Assembly: GCA_964479165.1 (NCBI GenBank)
Contig: CAYZJO010000013.1
Location: 9,386 to 73,385 of the forward strand
Direction of reading: 5' to 3'
Source of the DNA: an uncultured Dehalococcoidaceae bacterium
GTDB taxonomy: Bacteria; Chloroflexota; Dehalococcoidia; UBA2979
DNA: 64,000 nucleotides
Under the pieces are notes generated by a model, which saw only the letters and a list, made by a program, of their open reading frames with translations, was not told the DNA's origin and searched no databases. The position numbers were made by a program, and so were the translations under genes. Below are positions 2,746-58,640 of this stretch, in pieces; positions within the stretch are counted from its first letter, which is position 1; each line of letters starts with the position of its first letter.

Positions 2746-5700
2746 CTATGCCTGGTAGAAGGCGCCGCTGAGGTACTGCTTCATCAGATCGGACTCGTAG
2801 CCCGCGCGGACTCCGTTCCGCGCGGGCGCCCAGAGGCCGCCCTCGGGCGCGCCGTCCTCGGCTCGCTCGAGCTTGATGAACGACTCCTTCGGCGCGCCGT
2901 TCGCGCAGTGGACGTCGCTCTCGAAGCCCTTGCCAAGTTCCTGGCCGAAGAACGGCTTGCGGACGAGGGTGTCGGTGAGCAGCGTGGGCCGAAGCCACGC
3001 GCGCACGCCGCTCTGATGGCTGCCGTGGCGGAACATCGCCTGGTACCCGGTCTCGGGCGTCTTCGCGAGTCCGTCCGCTCGCTCGAGGGCGCCGCGCACC
3101 GAGCCGCGCGTGGCGACGTACATGTTGTAGTACATGCGGATCACGCCGGGCTGCATCGCGTTCTGGTAGCGGGCGCGAGCCATGCCCCGAGAGACGAGGT
3201 AGTCCTCGTCACCCTCCTTCCAGCCTCGGTACGGGCGGTCGGACGGGTCCGCGTCGAACCAGACGTAGTCGCCGTCGTCGATCCCGAGGGCCTGTCCGTC
3301 CTCCGGGCTCAGCTCGAGGTACGCCTCGCCGACCCAGGGCGTCCGTTTGTCGTGCCGGTAGGCGTCGCCGAAGGGGCCGAAGAGCATGCTCATCCAGTCG
3401 AGGTCGACGGGCGTGCTGTGCGCGCCGTGGCGGTACTTTGGCGTCATGAAGAGGAAGCGGAACCGATCGTCCGCCGCGGTCAGCGGGTGAACGGTCCCCT
3501 TCAAGTCGGACCACGCCTTCACGACGTTACGGATCTGCCGCACCTCTGTGGAGAGGTCGTCGAGTGACAGTCCGTACTCGAGAGGTCCCGCCGGCGCGAT
3601 CAGCGGATGTGGCCGGCCGTGGATCACGTTCGGCTCGTAGAACGTCGAGTCGACCGGCTCCCGGAAGACAGGGAGGTTCTCGCCGTACTCGAGGAACTCC
3701 GGCTCGTCGCGATAGAACTCGAGCCGTCCCGAGCGGTTGTACCAGGGCTTGCTCTCCTGCCGCTGCTCCCAGCCGCCGTGGCGCGGGTAGGTGCGGAAGT
3801 TCATGAGGGCAGGGATGCCCTGCTGCGCCCGTTGCTCGAGTTCGAGCACGTCGTATCCGCGCGTGGTGCTCGACGCCGAGAAGATGCGCTGGAGGTACAC
3901 CTCGTCGCGGCCATCGAGGAGGAACCTCCAGTAGTCCCGGAAGCGCGACTCTCCTGTGTGCTCAGCGAGCTTCTCCGAGATGCCCGCCATGACCTCGGCA
4001 TCCCCGCGCGTGTCGTAGATGCGGTCCAGCGGACTCCGCGGCGCCATGTGCAGGAACGAGTTCGTGCACGACCCGGTCGCGTCGAGGTTCTTCCGTTCGC
4101 CCCAGGAGTCGACGCCGAAGACGATGTCGGCGTACTCGCACGACGCGGTCCACCACCACTCGTTGACAAAGATCGCCTCGATGCCGGGCAGCGTGTTGTG
4201 CACCACGTCGTGGTGCCACTTCGCGTTGCCGAGCAGCGAGTTGGAGTTGCCGAAGAGCATCGCCTTCGTCGGCGTCGGCATGTGTGTCTCGCCGGTGAAG
4301 TTCTTTGTGCCGCCTCGCAACGGCCGGTCCCCGTAGTTGTAGAAGTGCGCTGACTCGCCCTTGTAGTACGACCCGATAGCCGCGGGCTGCGTCGGGTCGA
4401 GCTGGGGATTGAACGGGTCTTCTTTGATCCACTGCGGGATGCCGTTGAAGATCGAGCCGCGGTAGTTGCCCGCGTAGGCCCCGACGTTCCCTCCGATGTG
4501 GCCCACATTGTCGGTCAGCGCTGCCAGCAGGAAGATCGCGCGATCCTTGAGGTCGGCGTTGAAGTAGTGGTTCGGCCCCATCCCCGTGGCGAGCAGCGAC
4601 TTCCCTCTCGCCGCGGCGATCTGCTTCGCGAGGCTCTCGATAGCTGCGGGCGGCGCCCATGTCACCTCGGAGGTCGTCGCGAGATCGAAGTTCTCGTCAA
4701 GGTAGCGTTTGACCTGGCCGAATACGGGCTGCACGGAGACCTGCGAGCCGTCCAGAAGCGTGACTGCGAACTCCCCCTCCAGTGCCGGTTCAACGCCGGT
4801 CTCACGGAAGCGGTCACCCACCTGGTCGCGGGTCACCGGGACGGCCTCACTCGTCCGCTCGTCCCAGACCATGAAGTCGCCCCACTCGGCGCGGAGCGAC
4901 TCGGACACATACTGCGTTCCCTGCAGTGCAGGCGCCGGTAGCCGTGTGCCACCGGGAACGACCTGTACGAAGTTGTCGAGCGGAGCAGGTTCGTAGTCTT
5001 CGACCACGTCGCGCGCGTTCAGGAGCTGGTGCGTGTCCATGCGCACGAGGAGCGGTAGGTCGGTCCACGCCTTGATGTGGTCTTCGTCGTGGAGGCCGTT
5101 CGCGAGGATGTATTGCGCGCAGCCGAGGGCCAGCGCCGCGTCGGTCCCCGGCCGGATCATGATGACCTCGTCGGAGCGGTTGGATGTCGACTGGTAGTCC
5201 GTGGAGACGTTGATGATGCGCGTGCCCTTCTGACGCGCCTCGGAGAGCCAGTGGCCGTCCGGCATCTTCGTGGAGATCCAGTTCATCCCGAAGGTCACGA
5301 CCAGGTCGGCGTACTCCGGCGCGAAGAGGTCGAACTCCACCGTTTGATGCCCGGTCACCATCGGGTGTCCGGGCGGCAGGTCGGTGTGCCACGTGTATGA
5401 GTCCCACCCGCGACCGCCGAGCGCCTCGTCGGGGCCGACACCCCGGATGTGGTCATCCAGCAGCCCGAGCATGTTGGCGAAGCGGTAGAAGCTGTAGATG
5501 CGGTAGATGCCGAGGAGCGGCATGCCGCCTCGCACCTTGATGACCTGCGTCCCCGCCTCGTGCGCTGCCTCCACCATCGCGGGGTCGTACCCCTGCGCTG
5601 TGAGCCGCGCGGCGCCCTCCGCGCCCGAGTATGTGCGCGCGATATCGAGGTAGGTGCGCGCCGCGAGGTCGAAGGCCTCGTCCCAGGGGATCTTCACCCA

Positions 5701-42846: not shown

Positions 42847-43007
42847 GGTCGCGCCTCCGGTCGCGTCGATTCGGAGCCCTGGACGGCTTGACGTCACGTT
42901 AGCCCTAAACGCGCATCGTGGTCCTCGACCCGCTGCGACGGAGCGTACTACCTCGAGTCGTGGACGGTGACGAGATGATGGCTGTGCGTGGGTGGAAGGA
43001 GACGACG

Positions 43008-43613
43008 ATGGCGACCACACCGCCTGGCGATGAACATCCCGATCCGGATACTCAGCACCCCTCGGCACACCGTGGCATGAGCATGAGCTACGCGCGGTTC
43101 GGGGCGATGGTCGCCACGTCCGCGCTCGTCATGTTCATCCTCATGTATCTCAACACCTTCGCGTGGGACCACGTGCGGTGGAGCGAGACGCGCTTCTACA
43201 TGGCCTTGCTCATGGGCGCATCGATGGCAGTCATCATGATGGGCTACATGCTGAGCATGTATCGGAACGCGCGCGTCAACGCCGGCATCGCGGCAGCCAG
43301 CATTGCGCTCTTCCTGCTTGCCCTATTCCTTGTCCGCAGCCAGGCGACGGTGCAGGACACCTCCTATATGAGTGCCATGGTCCCCCACCACTCGATCGCG
43401 ATTCTCACCAGTGAACGCTCGCAGATCAGCGACTTGCGAGTCTGCGAGCTCGCCGTCGAGATCATCGAAGCTCAACGTGGTGAGATTCAGGAGATGTCCT
43501 GGCTGATCGACGACATCGAGGAGCACGGACGGGCCACCACGAGGGCGGAAGCCCACGCACGTCCGGTTCCTTCCTTCGAAGGAACGAGCGAGCGATCCTG
43601 CGCCAGCGAATAG
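43008..43613 (+). CDS. DUF305-family membrane-anchored protein (often in copper and oxidative-stress loci).
   Basis: AGGAGA RBS. N-terminal TM helices. MVPHHSIAILTSERSQISDLRVCELAVEIIEAQRGEIQEMSWL. Confidence 0.75.
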   Translation: MATTPPGDEHPDPDTQHPSAHRGMSMSYARFGAMVATSALVMFILMYLNTFAWDHVRWSETRFYMALLMGASMAVIMMGYMLSMYRNARVNAGIAAASIALFLLALFLVRSQATVQDTSYMSAMVPHHSIAILTSERSQISDLRVCELAVEIIEAQRGEIQEMSWLIDDIEEHGRATTRAEAHARPVPSFEGTSERSCASE

Positions 43614-43739
43614 CGAGGTGTCCCGGTAACCCGGCGGAGGGAATGCACTCGAGGCCATGCGCACGCGACGGCCTACGGAGCGAAAGAGCACCGCGTGAAT
43701 GGCGTCTCTGGCGCCTCGCCGGGGGCGTGAGCCTCCGAA

Positions 43740-43940
43740 CTAGCCACTTGAGCGATGCTCGCGCAGGTCGAGCATGATCTGCTGGAAGCGCTCCTGATCG
43801 ATGTCACCGCGCGCGTAGGCCCGACGCGCCTCGTCTTCGGCAGACGGAGCCCGATCTCGACCCGGAGCCAGGAACGATCGCAGTGCCACCGCAATCAGCA
43901 ACAGGAATGGCAACCACACCATGAGCATCATGATGCTCAT
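43740..43940 (-). CDS. SHOCT-domain small membrane protein.
   Basis: MSIMMLMVWLPFLLLIAVALRSF...ARRAYARGDIDQERFQQIMLDL. GGGGGA RBS. Last gene of the sigma-copB operon. Confidence 0.55.
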   Translation of the reverse strand: MSIMMLMVWLPFLLLIAVALRSFLAPGRDRAPSAEDEARRAYARGDIDQERFQQIMLDLREHRSSG

Positions 43941-44082
43941 CGAAAGCCAATCCCCCGAGTTCCAGTCACCATGCCCAGTGCCACATGACCGTGCCTGCTC
44001 ATGCTTCGAACAGCATCCGTCTGGAGGGACGTCGCATAGCCCGACGAACGTCCCGCCTTCGCCGGGCCACGAGTCCCTAACG

Positions 44083-46350
44083 CTAGGTCCCGTCCCCGGC
44101 TCGGAGGTCGACCCGTCGCAGTAGCTGCGCGTTGGCGGCGACGATGATCGTGGATAGGCTCATGAACACCGCGCCAAGGGCAGGCGGCAGGACGAAGCCC
44201 GCCCATGCCATGACGCCGGCCGCCAGCGGAATCGCCACGACGTTGTAGCCGGTCGCCCAGACCAGGTTCTGGACCATCTTGCGGTAGGACGCCGCCGATA
44301 GCCGGATCACGCCCACGACCGACCGTGGGTCATCGGAAGCGAGCACGACCCCTGCCGATTCGATCGCCACGTCCGTGCCGGCGCCGATCGCCAGTCCCAC
44401 GTCAGCCTGCGCCAACGCCGGGGCGTCGTTCACGCCGTCGCCGACCATCGCCACGCGCAACCCACGTCGCTGGAGCGCGACGACCTGTTCGGCCTTGTGC
44501 TCCGGCAACACCTCTGCGAACACCTCGTCGATCCCGAGGTCGCGCGCGACCGCCTCTGCCACGCTGCGCGCGTCGCCCGTAACCATCGCCACCTGCACCC
44601 CGAGGGCGTGAAGCGACTCGACCGCTTCGCGCGACTCGGGACGAGCCTCGTCCTCTAGCGCGAGCGCACCGGCGACCTGACCATCACGCAGCAGGTACAG
44701 CACAGTTGCCCCCCGCTGCTGCCAGGGTTCGACCGCTGACTCGGCGTCCGCTGAGATCTCGAGCCCCCGTTCGCGTAGCCGCCGGGGGCCGACCACCTCG
44801 ACCTCGACGCCGTCAACGACCCCCCGGACACCCCGTCCCGGGTCCGCGGCAAACGAAGACACGGGAGCCATGGCGCCATGCTCGCGAGCGCGCTCGACGA
44901 TGGCCCGCGCGAGCGGGTGCTCTGACTCCGCTTCGACGGAGCCGGCGAGCCGGAGCATCGCGGGCTCGTCGCCGTCGGCCACCCAGATCCCTGTGACGCG
45001 CGGCCGCCCGAGGGTGAGCGTCCCGGTCTTGTCGAAGAGCACGATGTCCAGCTGACGCGTCCGCTCGAGCGCGAGGCGGTCCTTCACGAGGATGCCATTG
45101 CGCGCGGAGACCTCCGTCGAGATCGCGATCACGAGCGGGATCGCAAGCCCGAGGGCGTGAGGGCAGGCGATCACGAGCACAGTGACCGTACGGGCAATCG
45201 CTTCGTCGACGTCGCCCAGAAGCGACCAGACGATGAACGTGGCGAACCCCGAGCCGATCGCGACGTAGAACAGTAACGCCGCGGCCCGATCGGCGATCGC
45301 CTGGGCGCGGGAGCGCGATTGTTGCGCCTGAGCGACTAGACGCTGGATTCCGGCGAGCGCGGTGTCGTCGCCGACGGCGTCCACGCGTACTCGGATGGCG
45401 GACCCGAGCGCGACAGTGGCAGCCGCGACGCGGTCGCCTCGCTGCCGTAGGACTGGGCGCGACTCACCCGTCAGCATGGCCTCGTCGAAGTCGGCCTGCC
45501 CGGATTCGACCCTGCCGTCAGCGGGGACACGAGCACCGGGGCGGACGAGGACCACGTCACCTGCCCTGAGATCCGAGAGCGGGACGATCCGTGTCTCGTC
45601 ACCGTCCACCAGTTCCGCTTCGTCCGGCAGGAGTTCAGCAAGGGCCGCCAGCGCGCCACGCGTCCGGCCGAGCGCGCGCATCTCCTGCCAGTGGCCGAGC
45701 AGCATCACTGTGACGAGCGCGGCGAGTTCCCACCAGAAATCGAGGTCGACCAGCCCGAACTCGTAGGCCACGGACGAGATGAACGCGACCGTGATCGCGA
45801 GCGAGATCAGCAGCATCATGCCTGGCTGGCGGACCCGAACCTCATCCCAGCCGCCCTTGAGAAACACCCGTCCGCCGTAGAGGAAGACAATCGAGCCGAG
45901 GACAGGCGAGACGAGGGCGTGACCCGGTACTGCCGTGAGCGAGTACCCGAGCCAGTGCTGCACCATCCCGCTGAACGCGATGGTGGGGATTGTCAGGACG
46001 AACGAGAGCCAGAAGAGACGCCGGAACGCCTCGGGGTCGTGCCCCGCGTGCTTGTCATGCCCGGCGTGCGGGTCCTGGCCGCGTCCGGTGCGCCCTGCGG
46101 ATGGCCGGTGCTCGGCGTGGTCGCCGTGAGCAGCGTCCTGCTCAGCAGCACGCGCTGGGGCGTGGCCGGCGTGCCCGTCGTGATCTTGGTGACCAATCGG
46201 CGCGCCAGGTGTGGTCGGCGCTTCGCCCGAGGCGGCTTCCGCATCGACGTGGTGGGCGCCCGACTGCGAGGGCTCGGGATGCAGAGGCCGCTGCTCCGGC
46301 GGGTGGTGGGCGTGGGCCGAGTGATCGGAGTGGTCGTGGTGCGCTGGCAT
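44083..46350 (-). CDS. copB: Heavy-metal P1B-type ATPase with a CPH motif and His-rich N-terminus (CopB-like copper exporter).
   Basis: ATG at 46350 with GAGGGGAG RBS. About 110 aa of His-rich N-terminus ([13 protein letters not shown]...). [29 protein letters not shown]. Confidence 0.9.
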
Positions 46351-46409
46351 TGCGTCTGCTCCCCTCGAGGACCGGGTGTGCCTCTGTAGACGCAGCCGCC
46401 CCTGGCCGA

Positions 46410-46976
46410 TTACACCGCGGGCGCCGTCTCGCAGATGCAATCGAGGCAGCCGTGGTCGGCACAGACACGGCAGGTCGCTTCGAGCGACTCACGCAGCGCG
46501 CGGCGAGCGCGGTGCCGCCGAACGTTCAGGTTGTTCGTGGTCAGCCCGAGCTCCTCGGCGACCTCGTGCGCCGGCCGCTCCTCCAGGTCAACCGCTGCGA
46601 GCACGGCAGCGTACTCCGGGCGGAGCGACGGCAGCAGCGCGCGAAAGCACTCGCAGAGTTCGCGCTCAGCCGCTTCCGAGAGGTCTGCGAGATCGTGGCC
46701 GTCGTACAGTCGTTCCACCCGTCGCGTCTGGACGTCTTGCCGCCGGTAGGCGTCGACCACCGCGTTCCGTAGGACGCGATAGAACCATGCGGCGAGCCGT
46801 TCCCCGTCGTCGATGTCTGGCGCTGCGCGGAACGCGCGCAGAAACGCCTCCTGGAGAATGTCCTCGGCCAGCTCCGGGTCGGACACGCGGCGCCGCACGA
46901 AGGCCAGGTACTGTGAGCGTGCAGCGCTGAGGGCTTCCTGAGCGTCCGTCCGTGGTGTGTGAATGTGTACTGCCAT
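46410..46976 (-). CDS. ECF sigma factor with a C-terminal Cys-rich extension (CorE-like).
   Basis: Sigma-70 regions 2 and 4 ([12 protein letters not shown]...DAYRR; [30 protein letters not shown]) are followed by [17 protein letters not shown]. It lies directly upstream of copB in the same orientation. Confidence 0.8.
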
Positions 46977-47042
46977 AGCGGACTCGCGCTTCGCCCAGGG
47001 CGATTGCACCGCGACCTCAGGTCGCGGTCTCGCGCCCGATCC

Positions 47043-47483
47043 TCAGTTAACCCGAAGGACGCCGTGCATACCTGCATCGCGGTGCCCCGGCTCATTGCAG
47101 TAGAAGACGTATTCGCCGACGTCGGTCGCCTCGAACTCCAGGGTCCCTCGCTGACCGGCTCCGAGCGCCATGTGCATCGCCGCTCCGCCGCCGTGCCCGC
47201 CGTGGCCACCGGCAGACGAACCGCCGGTCATCTCCACTCCCTGCATCGGCATGGAGTCGATGCTGAAGTCATGCGATAGCGCGCCGCCGTTCTCCAGGCG
47301 CAGACGCACGCTCTCCCCGCGGGCGAGTTCAATCACTGTCGGCTCGTACGCGATGTCCCGCATCATCACGCTGATCTCGCGGACGGCGGCACCGTCGCCA
47401 TCGGATGGGGAGGTGTCGCCACCACACGCGATGAACGCGAGCCCAACGGTCACGAGCACAGTGAGAAGCGCGTTGCGTCGCAC
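47043..47483 (-). CDS. Cupredoxin (type-1 copper) lipoprotein with a His/Met-rich insert.
   Basis: GTG at 47483 with GGAGGTG RBS. Lipobox LAFIACGG. MPMQGVEMTGGSSAGGHGGHGGGAAMHM. T1Cu ligands FYCNEPGHRDAGMHGV. Confidence 0.75.
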   Translation of the reverse strand: MRRNALLTVLVTVGLAFIACGGDTSPSDGDGAAVREISVMMRDIAYEPTVIELARGESVRLRLENGGALSHDFSIDSMPMQGVEMTGGSSAGGHGGHGGGAAMHMALGAGQRGTLEFEATDVGEYVFYCNEPGHRDAGMHGVLRVN

Positions 47484-47695
47484 CTCACCTCCATCAGTAT
47501 TCCGAATGACTCGGGGAACACCCGGCAGGACGGCTGCGGACCGCTCGCTATTATCCTCTCCACGCGACGCGCCAGCCGAGCACGCGCTCGCACCGTCCGA
47601 CGGACGGCATTTCGCGGCAAGTTGCACGAATGCTAGGCCGCGATCCATGGTCGCGCTTACCGTCGCGCGCCGCAGTCCGAACTCAGCGAATGACC

Positions 47696-48448
47696 TCATT
47701 CCACGCTGACCGTAAAAGAGGCGGTTCGCACGTCACCGTCCCCGGGCAAGTACTGAGCCCACAATCGGTAGAGCCCGGGCTTCGGGAAGATGTGGCTGAA
47801 GTCGAGATCCGGACCGAGGCTCGCTCGCGTGGGCGCCGGGTGCGCGTGGTGGTCACCATGCTCCCCTGGTTCCCGCCGTGCATCCGCGGCGTGAGCGTGA
47901 CCGAAGTCTTGTGCTGCTGCATCGAGGATAACCACGTGCGCAGCAGCCCCCAGGTACGGACGGAGATCCGTCACACCTGCTCCCGTGTCGATGCGAGCGA
48001 CGCGGAGGCGCAGGGAAGTCGTCTCACCCGCCCGGATGTTTCGCGGCAAGCTGAGCGAGACGAGGTGGTCGCCGACGAGCACCGGTTTCGTGTCTGGGGA
48101 GAGAGTGCCCCTGGCAGTACTTTCGTCCCCAACCGAGATTTCGAAGCGTTCGAGTATCTGCTCGCCGGCTCGCCGCTCCGCCTCGAGGAAGCCGACGTAG
48201 ATACCGGGCTCCTGGAACGTCGCGTCGACTTCGAACGCCCCCGCTGCAGCAACCGGGTGGGGATGGAGATGCTGGAAGCGCTCGAGATCGCGACGTACGA
48301 GGATGAGGTGTGCTGGGCGATTGTGCACTTGGAGGATATCGCTGACCGGCTCGCGGGACTCTGAGTCGAGGATGTCGAACCGCAGACGCTCCGTCTGGCC
48401 GGGTTGCAGCACGGGAGGGGCATCAATCTTCACCTGAGTCGAGTACAT
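47696..48448 (-). CDS. Hypothetical two-domain His-rich protein, possibly a metal-binding or copper-chaperone-like protein.
   Basis: ATG at 48448 with GGAGGA RBS. HLHPHP, HAHAADARREPGEHGDHHAHP. Two repeated beta-rich segments. It is upstream of the cupredoxin gene. The track N-terminus from 48703 is spurious. Confidence 0.5.
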   Translation of the reverse strand: MYSTQVKIDAPPVLQPGQTERLRFDILDSESREPVSDILQVHNRPAHLILVRRDLERFQHLHPHPVAAAGAFEVDATFQEPGIYVGFLEAERRAGEQILERFEISVGDESTARGTLSPDTKPVLVGDHLVSLSLPRNIRAGETTSLRLRVARIDTGAGVTDLRPYLGAAAHVVILDAAAQDFGHAHAADARREPGEHGDHHAHPAPTRASLGPDLDFSHIFPKPGLYRLWAQYLPGDGDVRTASFTVSVE

Positions 48449-48515
48449 GGCTTGTCCTCCATGACCGTACCGTCTCGCATGCGCGTGGTTGGCCACCGGG
48501 GTCCAGTCAGGACAA

Positions 48516-49502
48516 CTAACGGTGAAGCCCGGAGGCCGGACTCGCGCGATGACGATCGCCTTCAGCAGTGGCGGGATGGGCTCCAAGCTCAGGTTGGCGG
48601 GTTCGCTCGGCGGCAGAAGCGGCGTCCAACGCCAGGCGATGGCCTCGGTCGAGCCGCCGACGAGTGACAAACGCGGCAGCCGCAGCGAACACGACGGTCG
48701 CAATCAACGCCGCCAATTGACGGCCATCTCCGTCGAGCAGACTGGTCGCCAGACCGTCTGTGTTGTTGCTCCGATTGAACACCGTGTGGAGCAGCGCGAC
48801 GGCGAGGACACTGTCTCGTGTTCCGCGGAGTACCACCCCGAGCATCAGCCGGAAGACCGCCCCGAAGATCAGGAGCGCGACCAGCCCCGCCACCACCGAG
48901 CCGGCTGAGAAGTCACCGAAGAATTGGAACGGCATGTGGATCAGCGCGAAGGGGACCGCCGTCAGCGCAGCGGCCGCAAGGAGCCCGAAGCGCTCGAGTC
49001 GCGTCTGCACTACGCCTGCCCAGGCGGTCTCCTCGCCGAGGTTGATCAGGAGGAACGCGGTCAACAGCCCGACAACCTCGCTGACGACGAGGCGCATCGG
49101 GTCGACCGGCCTCAGTGAGTCCCCGAGCAGCAACGCGAACCCGATAGTCAGCGCCGGCAGCCCGCCGAGCACGGCCAGCCACCAGATCACTCCAAACCGC
49201 CAGCGAAACGCTCGACCCAGAAGGCCGCGGACGCCCGCAGGTCCATCGGCTGCCCACGTCACCCAGAGCGCCGTCGGAATCATCACTCCCACGGTCATCA
49301 GTAGCGCGGTGAGCTGCTCGGCCTCGAGTCCTACCTTCCCCGCCAGCGAGCCCCCCGGTATGACGCCGTGGTCGGCAAGGACAGGGAGGGCCATCAACGG
49401 ATACGCCAGCGAGAAAAGCAGGACCAGGAACGCGCCGGTCGGGTGTCGACCGGCCCAGCCCCGGAACCCGGGCCGCGGCGCCCCCTCGGATGTCCTACTT
49501 GT
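48516..49502 (-). CDS. CPBP-family intramembrane metalloprotease (CAAX protease / Abi-like).
   Basis: LGEETAWAGVVQTRLER (EExxxR), FALIHMPF and LLHTVFNRS motifs. Multi-TM. The start is uncertain (possible TTG near 49502). Confidence 0.65.
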   Translation of the reverse strand, partial: TSRTSEGAPRPGFRGWAGRHPTGAFLVLLFSLAYPLMALPVLADHGVIPGGSLAGKVGLEAEQLTALLMTVGVMIPTALWVTWAADGPAGVRGLLGRAFRWRFGVIWWLAVLGGLPALTIGFALLLGDSLRPVDPMRLVVSEVVGLLTAFLLINLGEETAWAGVVQTRLERFGLLAAAALTAVPFALIHMPFQFFGDFSAGSVVAGLVALLIFGAVFRLMLGVVLRGTRDSVLAVALLHTVFNRSNNTDGLATSLLDGDGRQLAALIATVVFAAAAAFVTRRRLDRGHRLALDAASAAERTRQPELGAHPATAEGDRHRASPASGLHR

Positions 49503-53040: not shown

Positions 53041-53733
53041 ATGAACGCTTCGCTTCTCCGCCGCCAATCCGCTATCGCTACCCGTGGCCTCGGGTCGGTG
53101 GACCGTTCCGAAGTCCGCGGCGCTCCCGCAGTCGCCGCAGCCGCCTCGGGCAAAGCCACGCTGGTCGCAGATCACGCTGGAGCTTCCAATCCGACTGACT
53201 TCGAGGCATTCGTGCGGGAGTTCGAGGCATTCGGACTGGCGCGCGCGATGCGACTGCTCGCGTCGCCCGACGCCGCGGCAGAGGCGACGCAGGAGGCGCT
53301 CATCCGTGCGTTCGGCAGTTGGCAGCGATTCCGCGGAGGCAACCGCCACGCATGGTTCGCAACAATCGTGACGAACGTCGCGATCGACGAGTTGCGGAGG
53401 CGCCGACGCCGTCCTCAGTTCTCGATCGAGGGCGCGGAGGAGTCCGGTCGGTGGTCTCCTCCTGCGTCCGTCGACCCTGGACCCCAGGAGGTTGCCGAGA
53501 TCGGGGAGCTTCGCGAGATCCTGTCGCAATCCATGAGTGTCCTGCGCCCAGAATCGCGGGCGATACTCATGATGGCCGATGTGGAGAGCCTCAGTTATCG
53601 AGAGATTGCCGAGTCGATTGGTGTGCCGATCGGGACGGTCCGATCAAGATTGAGTCGTTCGCGCTCGGCCGTTCGCACCCGACTACGCGCCATGGAGCGC
53701 GCTCGCGAGTACCTGCCCGCGGTGCGGGTGTGA
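53041..53733 (+). CDS. ECF-type sigma-70 family sigma factor with an N-terminal extension of about 65 aa.
   Basis: AAGGGGG RBS. Region 2: QEALIRAFGSWQRFRGGNRHAWFATIVTNVAIDELRRR. Region 4: LSYREIAESIGVPIGTVRSRLSRSRSAVR. Confidence 0.8.
   Translation: MNASLLRRQSAIATRGLGSVDRSEVRGAPAVAAAASGKATLVADHAGASNPTDFEAFVREFEAFGLARAMRLLASPDAAAEATQEALIRAFGSWQRFRGGNRHAWFATIVTNVAIDELRRRRRRPQFSIEGAEESGRWSPPASVDPGPQEVAEIGELREILSQSMSVLRPESRAILMMADVESLSYREIAESIGVPIGTVRSRLSRSRSAVRTRLRAMERAREYLPAVRV

Positions 53734-57399: not shown

Positions 57400-58640
<1,241 letters not shown>

Follow-up and report, generated by a model that had tools for sequence, protein, structure and literature searches.

A CorE-like sigma factor with a short cysteine-rich tail in a putative bacterial copper-resistance cassette

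How might a cell couple copper to transcription through a sigma factor that has no visible anti-sigma partner? The question is raised by a locus in a 64,000-nt stretch of contig CAYZJO010000013.1 (the whole of this stretch is referred to here as the window; its G+C content is about 66% all along). Five co-oriented genes on the minus strand, spanning 43740–48448, encode a His-rich protein, a cupredoxin lipoprotein, an extracytoplasmic function (ECF) sigma factor, a P1B-type ATPase and a small membrane protein. A preliminary reading of the DNA (the sequence-only reading) had named this same set of genes, all of which we find on that strand, and had described a copper cluster led by the sigma gene; the copper cluster with its sigma factor stands, but the sigma gene (46410–46976) is not first in position. 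To our knowledge, the CorE-like proteins that it resembles belong to a small number of sigma factors believed to detect a metal directly and with no partner, the two that have been studied both come from Myxococcus, and we know of no structure. We put the probability at roughly three in four that the region is a self-contained copper-resistance cassette under a one-protein sensor and regulator of this type. Such direct-sensing regulators are already known from Myxococcus; the locus is a clear new example of them, not a new kind.

CorE-like proteins were defined as group ECF44, in which a CxC motif between sigma2 and sigma4.2 is strictly conserved and a Cys-rich domain (CRD) is found at the C terminus; both elements are essential for metal-dependent activity, and no anti-sigma factor is involved (PMC3107203, PMC4937300, PMC6851896). 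ECF44 has been merged with ECF24 into ECF238, which includes SigZ of Bacillus subtilis (PMC7826278). The key residues of CorE are C120, C122, C181, C184, A185, C189, C192 and C194 (PMC3107203, PMC6851896). Of these, C181, C184, C192 and C194 are the universally conserved Cys of the family, and C189 is the main copper-activation residue, present only in the copper-syntenic subset of the family; a further Cys, C206, is non-conserved and has a minor effect (PMC3107203). Exchange of Ala185 for Cys, the residue found in CorE2 (C174), shifts specificity towards Cd and Zn (PMC4937300).

The sigma factor of the window (188 aa) consists of sigma2 and sigma4 only (Pfam Sigma70_r2, 55.6 bits, and Sigma70_r4_2, 36.5 bits, each score exceeding its cutoff), and its best NCBIfam match is SigZ (TIGR02959, 107.8 bits), in an alignment that runs through the tail. 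Before sigma4 the linker carries a CEC motif (residues 108–110, encoded at 46647–46655), which the sequence-only reading had not mentioned. The tail has the spacing C-x2-C-x4-C-x2-C-x-C (C169, C172, C177, C180 and C182) with H175 within it, and forms a putative sensor block of 14 residues (46431–46472). This Cys-rich block is real, but the protein does not end there at CICE, as had been proposed, and continues for six further residues (ETAPAV*). The resemblance of the tail to the CRD of CorE, also proposed earlier, extends to its register: C108, C110, C169, C172, A173, C177, C180 and C182 all occupy the published CorE positions minus a constant 12.

CorE itself (Myxococcus xanthus MXAN_3426, ECF44) shares with the window protein the sigma2–sigma4 body, the linker CxC, a tail in the same register at a spacing of 59 residues, the Ala after the second tail Cys, the lack of an anti-sigma factor and the control, in our case predicted, of a P1B copper ATPase. 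It is activated by Cu(II) and inactivated by Cu(I). The window protein differs from CorE in coming from another phylum (probably Chloroflexota) and in its shorter tail without C206. The genetic setting differs too, with a His-rich ATPase of the CopB type, bearing a CPH motif, in an operon-like cassette together with a cupredoxin and with no multicopper oxidase. SigZ (ECF238 subgroup 9), for which no anti-sigma factor is known, differs from the window protein in reportedly having only two C-terminal Cys. A similar principle, a Cys-rich C-terminal extension of an ECF sigma factor acting as a direct metal sensor, is described for OrbS of Burkholderia cenocepacia (PMC9023288); this is a likeness by description only, to an iron-starvation sigma factor of another ECF group that responds to iron.

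A protein search with the window sigma factor returned at least 1782 homologues. Cys conservation was assessed from alignments of 25 and of 120 sequences, the latter being the best of the 1782, with 45–88% identity to the window protein and drawn from several phyla (Chloroflexota, Zixibacteria, Leptospiraceae and others). Nearly all of these 120 best homologues have exactly seven Cys and the tail motif TCRxCAxHGCLDCTC. C108, C110, C169, C172, C177 and C180 are invariant among them, with at least 90% conservation at C182 and H175, so the tail is kept throughout the set. The first tail Cys follows the CxC motif at a distance of exactly 59 residues, as in CorE, in all 12 of the 12 relatives in which both sites were resolved. 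In tblastn searches with one genome per species, an E-value gap from 4e-31 to 2e-15 separates the family from other ECF sigma factors, which are tail-less. The C177 equivalent is replaced by Phe or Tyr in the alphaproteobacterial relatives L011–L013, a loss that fits the family diversity described in 2011 (PMC3107203).

The Cys pattern, kept in 120 homologues down to 45% identity, is not due to chance. Every sequence-level test available agrees in supporting the assignment of the window protein to sigma factors of the CorE type (ECF44, now inside ECF238).

Conservation of this sort would fit structural metal sites equally well, since the seven Cys and one His provide eight ligands, enough for two tetrahedral Zn sites. 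A sigma factor built in this way could be constitutively active, with copper acting only on its amount, for example through a repressor of a cupredoxin–sigma operon. We regard this as distinctly unlikely. In CorE and CorE2, deletion of the CRD or mutation of the CxC motif abolishes the metal response, and single residues switch the metal that is recognized (PMC3107203, PMC4937300). Expression of corE and corE2 is moreover largely independent of metal while their targets are induced (PMC6851896).

That no cognate anti-sigma gene is visible had been noted from the sequence, and wider searches bear it out. Pfam detects no anti-sigma domain in the cassette neighbours or in the open reading frames (ORFs) that overlap the sigma gene; the overlapping ORFs in other frames contain no Pfam domains of any kind and were rejected as hidden anti-sigma genes. 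No anti-sigma family is represented among the called genes of nine related loci, and in none of 70 family loci (0/70) does a ZAS-type ORF with an HxxxCxxC motif start just after the sigma gene.

A partner of an unrecognized sort, either an atypical anti-sigma factor or a metal-delivery factor, could in principle be the SHOCT-like small protein, the His-rich Ig-like protein or an unlinked anti-sigma factor. Conservation within the cassette extends to the small membrane protein, and the lipoprotein that neighbours CorE2 influences signalling without being an anti-sigma factor. Most relatives also have, immediately before the sigma gene and after the cupredoxin gene, a 176-aa protein that combines an HMA domain (CEHC) at the N terminus with a Cys-rich C-terminal part (CYCGC...CCCG). 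This protein, which may be a copper chaperone for the sigma factor, is encoded at positions 2270–2800 of locus L081 and is also present in L164, L167, L169, L170 and L171. It is absent from the window, where the His-rich protein is found instead, and from L161 and L162, while the sigma factor is intact in all three. In addition, no more than about 40 residues of the small protein lie outside the membrane, these partners are missing from more distant family loci, and anti-sigma domains were not detected in the searches above. A hidden partner of this kind is accordingly hard to credit.

Does the sigma factor respond to copper? It has the equivalent of C189 (C177) and an Ala (A173) at the position of CorE 185 and CorE2 174. 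CorE2 (M. xanthus MXAN_5263, ECF238s15) responds to Cd and Zn; it likewise combines a CxC motif with a CRD, has no anti-sigma factor, and is encoded by a gene that is not itself metal-induced. It differs from the window protein in having Cys174 where the latter has Ala173, the residue that switches specificity to Cd/Zn, and in its targets, a cation diffusion facilitator pump and a glyoxal-oxidase/Kelch protein in place of a copper ATPase. The neighbourhood of the window sigma gene is metal-related (copper ATPase, cupredoxin and DUF305), and P1B ATPases lie beside many family members.

The ATPase (44083–46350, 755 aa, with its ATG at 46350) scores 567 bits against the copper-translocating family TIGR01511, above cutoff, and contains the Pfam domains E1-E2_ATPase and Hydrolase. 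It had been described as a His-rich P1B ATPase with a CPH motif, co-oriented with the sigma gene, and this is confirmed by a CPH motif at residue 397 and by 21 His in the first 130 residues, on the same minus strand. Further motifs are DKTGT (441), GYN (702) and MSLST (731), and the N terminus lacks a CxxC HMA domain. We take these signatures to place the protein in class P1B-3 of the Arguello classification, so that a CopB-type copper pump is indicated.

Given how nearly identical the domain of CorE2 is, a Cys/His cluster of this type might instead sense thiol oxidation or another thiophilic metal (Zn, Cd or Ag), the copper genes then being part of a broader stress response. The motifs also resemble ZAS redox-sensing domains, and some family members appear to control genes unrelated to copper. 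In L117, from a soil/rhizosphere clade, a TGTAAT-N16-CGTC site divergent from the sigma gene faces a gene for a VTT/DedA and rhodanese membrane protein (4622–5551, minus strand), which indicates that the family regulon is not always copper export. We nevertheless consider a non-copper signal for the window sigma factor highly improbable: its specificity position holds the Ala of CorE and not the Cys of CorE2; the sole strong cognate promoter in the 64 kb is positioned to drive a copper-type ATPase; and all ATPase partners found across the family are of copper types (CPH, or CPC with CxxC). The distant members, 40–49% identical and including the myxobacteria Archangium and Corallococcus, adjoin CPC ATPases with CxxC, YHS or HMBD domains.

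An ECF promoter had been expected upstream of the sigma and cupredoxin genes; none is there, and the strong site lies instead downstream of the sigma gene, before the ATPase. It is the single match to TGTAAY-N15-18-CGTC in the window (46414–46389, minus strand). Its −35 element TGTAAT (46414–46409) overlaps the sigma stop codon TAA (46412–46410; GTG TAA TC), a further difference from CorE. Its −10 element CGTC (46392–46389) is separated by 38 nt from the ATPase start codon, with transcription expected to begin near 46380–46384. In a position weight matrix (PWM) scan the site scores 26.7 bits, and the next best in the window 9.8.

The same pattern recurs around related sigma genes. In 563 kb of family loci there are 46 copies of TGTAAY-N15-17-CGTC, against 4 in 905 kb around unrelated ECF sigma genes, and for TGTAAN-N16-CGTC the counts are 94 and 2 in the same sets, an enrichment of about 75-fold per base. 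Of 49 distinct sites, with 15–17 nt permitted, 46 have a 16-nt spacer, and one or more sites are present in 68 of 102 family loci. Their positions are upstream of a P1B ATPase gene (18), upstream of the sigma gene (10) or divergent from it (27), and several further ones come, like that of the window, directly after the sigma stop codon. Between the window and its relatives, identity is 80–86% over the 56-nt spacer that separates the sigma and ATPase genes but only about 52% at third codon positions of the sigma gene; the conserved blocks of the spacer are TGTAATC and GGCTGCGTCT, with a variable stretch between them. From this cross-locus comparison we predict the family promoter consensus TGTAAN-N16-CGTC, and we predict that the site downstream of the sigma gene drives the ATPase.

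The placement of the predicted site would agree with the published incomplete autoregulation of CorE-like sigma genes: CorE is not fully autoregulated, and the only strong predicted site in the window lies downstream of the sigma gene. In an Archangium relative, a member of the bacterial order to which Myxococcus also belongs, TGTAAG-N16-CGTC precedes the ATPase gene. It is in keeping with CorE promoters as described in published text (an AAC-type −35 element and a conserved G in the −10 element, 16–18 nt apart). A literature search for ECF promoters of the TGTAAC/CGTC type returned an unrelated ECF16 case only.

Beyond the promoter itself, the predicted 5′ untranslated region of the ATPase (46351–46388) and its homologues keep a GAGG...CCUC stem just before the Shine–Dalgarno sequence; the stem of L171 has another sequence (GAGGGG...CCCTC), a hint that a small hairpin is conserved. 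A segment with an inverted repeat, GGGACGTTCGTCGGGC, lies between the ATPase stop codon and the small gene (44023–44057), is conserved in L162, L167 and L169, and may be an intergenic stem-loop.

What, then, would drive the sigma gene? Neither a cognate site nor one of the GGAAC...CGTC type is present upstream of the sigma, cupredoxin, His-rich or DUF305 genes, where the best local score is a PWM of −0.6 (TGCAAT-N16-CGAG, 46980–47010), and a scan of 43500–48900 for the sigma-70 consensus gave no sites. In L161, L162, L164, L167 and L169 an element, CGTATCCTT (GATATCCTT in L161), is conserved 37–62 nt upstream of the cupredoxin start; it may be more like a housekeeping −10 element (TATCCT) than an ECF site.

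The upstream DNA also bears on the possibility that copper acts through the amount of the sigma factor. The gap between the cupredoxin stop codon and the sigma start codon contains a perfect palindrome of 10+10 bp (47008–47028; ACCGCGACCT-G-AGGTCGCGGT), which could be an operator or a product of chance. It is not conserved in relatives (L161 or L162), and it was rejected as a terminator or attenuator given its RNA fold z-score of −1.4, the lack of a T-run and the lack of conservation. A repressor acting on the cassette is suggested for L170, where a perfect inverted repeat of 14+14 bp, GTGACCCCTACCCC/GGGGTAGGGGTCAC, lies upstream of the cupredoxin gene (about 4400–4440) and resembles CsoR-type operators. 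Against control of this kind, tblastn with CsoR sequences found nothing in the window, and a weak match in L013 only among the fetched loci.

Several observations weigh against direct copper sensing by a CorE-like protein at this locus, and they are set out together here. The NCBIfam SigZ score lies under the equivalog cutoff of 168.65, and the comparison with CorE was made through published residue numbers and myxobacterial relatives. The sixth Cys of the CRD (CorE C206) is absent, there being no Cys after C182; because C206 is not conserved in the family and plays a minor role in CorE, this does not affect membership. In an AlphaFold2 model of the sigma factor the core domains have a predicted local distance difference test (pLDDT) score above 90, the CxC motif lies in a helix (101–117) and C169, C172 and H175 lie at the end of another (147–175), but the tail (residues 170–188) has a pLDDT of 42–52, too low for the model to show a joint CxC–tail metal site. 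A PDB sequence search returned ECF cores only and no solved structure with such a tail. On the DNA side, CGTATCCTT is absent near the window cassette, where no promoter that would drive the sigma gene was found, and the palindrome of L170 indicates that in this clade the cassette may also be controlled through its transcription.

Despite these points we favour direct sensing, and infer copper-dependent activity of the window sigma factor from its likeness to CorE. The sigma gene would be co-transcribed with the upstream cupredoxin gene, and possibly with the His-rich gene, from a promoter that is not of the sigma factor's own type; the proposal of this non-cognate step draws on the lack of a cognate site upstream and on the published behaviour of CorE and CorE2. 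Such a promoter would let the cell keep a pool of inactive sigma factor. When cytoplasmic copper rises, the metal would, by homology with CorE, bind C108 and C110 of the linker together with C169, C172, H175, C177, C180 and C182 of the tail, and would tie the tail to the first helix of sigma4 so that the protein becomes competent to recognize its promoter. Active holoenzyme would then fire from the TGTAAT-N16-CGTC site predicted in silico, and so raise the CopB-type ATPase and the small membrane protein for copper export. The cupredoxin lipoprotein, the His-rich Ig-like protein and the DUF305 protein would serve as accessory copper-binding proteins.

A more far-reaching version can be put forward only tentatively, as we think it doubtful when all its parts are taken jointly. 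The locus would be a horizontally mobile sensor–promoter–pump module of a Chloroflexota-centred clade, in which the sigma stop codon is part of the −35 element of the one promoter that the sigma factor targets. Linker and tail would be bridged by a binuclear copper–thiolate site made of the seven Cys and one His, and the His-rich tandem Ig-like protein (or, in relatives, the HMA and Cys-rich protein) would act as a cytoplasmic copper buffer or chaperone, not described before, that supplies or adjusts the sigma factor. If this were true, the short and highly conserved version found here, simpler than CorE, could be a tractable model for the structure of CorE-type sensing.

The locus extends the CorE set of motifs to a distant lineage, where it takes a minimal form (a Cys block of 14 residues and six residues after it) within a simple predicted circuit of one strong target promoter and one pump. 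Across the family the outputs include pumps of both the CopA and the CopB type. These features are of use for annotation, would be so for the design of experiments or of copper-inducible synthetic switches, and leave the current understanding of such regulators unchanged.

In relatives with 56–88% identity the gene order is cupredoxin, in most cases the 176-aa HMA and Cys-rich protein, sigma factor, His-rich ATPase with CPH motif, small protein and often a cytochrome c. The flanks of these cassettes are unrelated and sometimes contain a resolvase, an integrase or a transposase fragment, which suggests that the cassette moves between genomes.

The cupredoxin gene (47043–47483, within an ORF of 47043–47699) probably starts with the GTG at 47483, 8 nt after GGAGGT, giving a protein of 146 aa that compares with 139–149 aa for its homologues. 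It matches Pfam Cupredoxin_1 and Copper-bind. The earlier description, a cupredoxin lipoprotein with a Met/His-rich insert encoded upstream of the sigma gene, matches what we find: a lipobox (LAFIAC), the insert MPMQGVEMTGGSSAGGHGGHGGGAAMHM and a type-1 copper site (C-x4-H-x4-M). Scores against the NCBIfam CopI equivalogs fall under cutoff in both cases (NF051440, 51.6 against 280; NF047895, 18.7 against 200), and by these profiles the protein is CopI-like in its His/Met-rich insert, not a CopI equivalog.

The His-rich protein (47696–48448, 250 aa) has two Ig-like beta-sandwich domains and no match in Pfam or NCBIfam. It contains the conserved motifs H..HLI.VRRDL..FQHLHP and PYLGAAAHVV...H.H and a His-rich loop, and the window version has no signal peptide. 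An AlphaFold2 model (pLDDT 90.8, predicted template modelling score 0.86) is all-beta with two domains, and a fold search with it returned generic Ig/FN3 matches in the PDB only. There are 28 homologues, which share invariant His residues and some of which have a YtkA-like domain (PF13115). Homologues recur beside P1B ATPases, for example in L175, after a CPH ATPase next to another CorE-like sigma gene, and also in L009. The invariant His, the YtkA-like domain of some homologues and the recurrence beside copper pumps together suggest that the protein binds metal.

The small membrane protein (43740–43940, 66 aa) has one transmembrane helix followed by ARRAYARGDIDQERFQQIMLDL, and in relatives it directly follows the ATPase with up to 76% identity. 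Of its earlier description as a SHOCT protein, the small co-oriented protein remains and the domain label is weak: the resemblance is by eye only, the window protein has no Pfam match even at E ≤ 5, and the 76%-identical homologue in L162 gives E = 0.021 (15 bits, cutoff 27) against SHOCT (PF09851). Relatives start this protein 15 codons earlier, with MWHWHGDWNSGEWLS (MWHWHG...). In the window, the corresponding ATG at 43986 is followed by an extra G in a G-run (43975–43986, minus strand), which yields MWHWAW* and leaves the His/Trp-rich N-terminal piece frameshifted, through either a real mutation or an assembly error. The first codons of the small gene (MSIMML) also form a perfect 20-bp palindrome, ATGAGCATCATGATGCTCAT (43921–43940), with a mirror ORF on the other strand.

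A DUF305/CopM-like gene (42918–43613) had been placed downstream of the cassette. It is present, with a Pfam score of 30.4 bits for PF03713 (cutoff 27), but lies on the plus strand and is convergent with the cassette. The match is partial (residues 147–208), the NCBIfam CopM match is weak, and the true start of the gene is probably internal. A 55%-identical homologue lies beside another sigma gene of the family in L123.

Further genes on either side have no relation to metals; they encode an adenylate cyclase, a hemerythrin, a cupin and an amino-acid permease on one side and a CAAX protease, a PAS-GAF histidine kinase and a LuxR regulator on the other. The window also contains a second, unrelated ECF sigma gene (about 53100–53733, plus strand), whose product is 30% identical to the CorE-like sigma factor and has no Cys tail, and an IS110-family transposase gene (57558–58634, plus strand; DEDD_Tnp_IS110 and Transposase_20) about 9 kb from the cassette.

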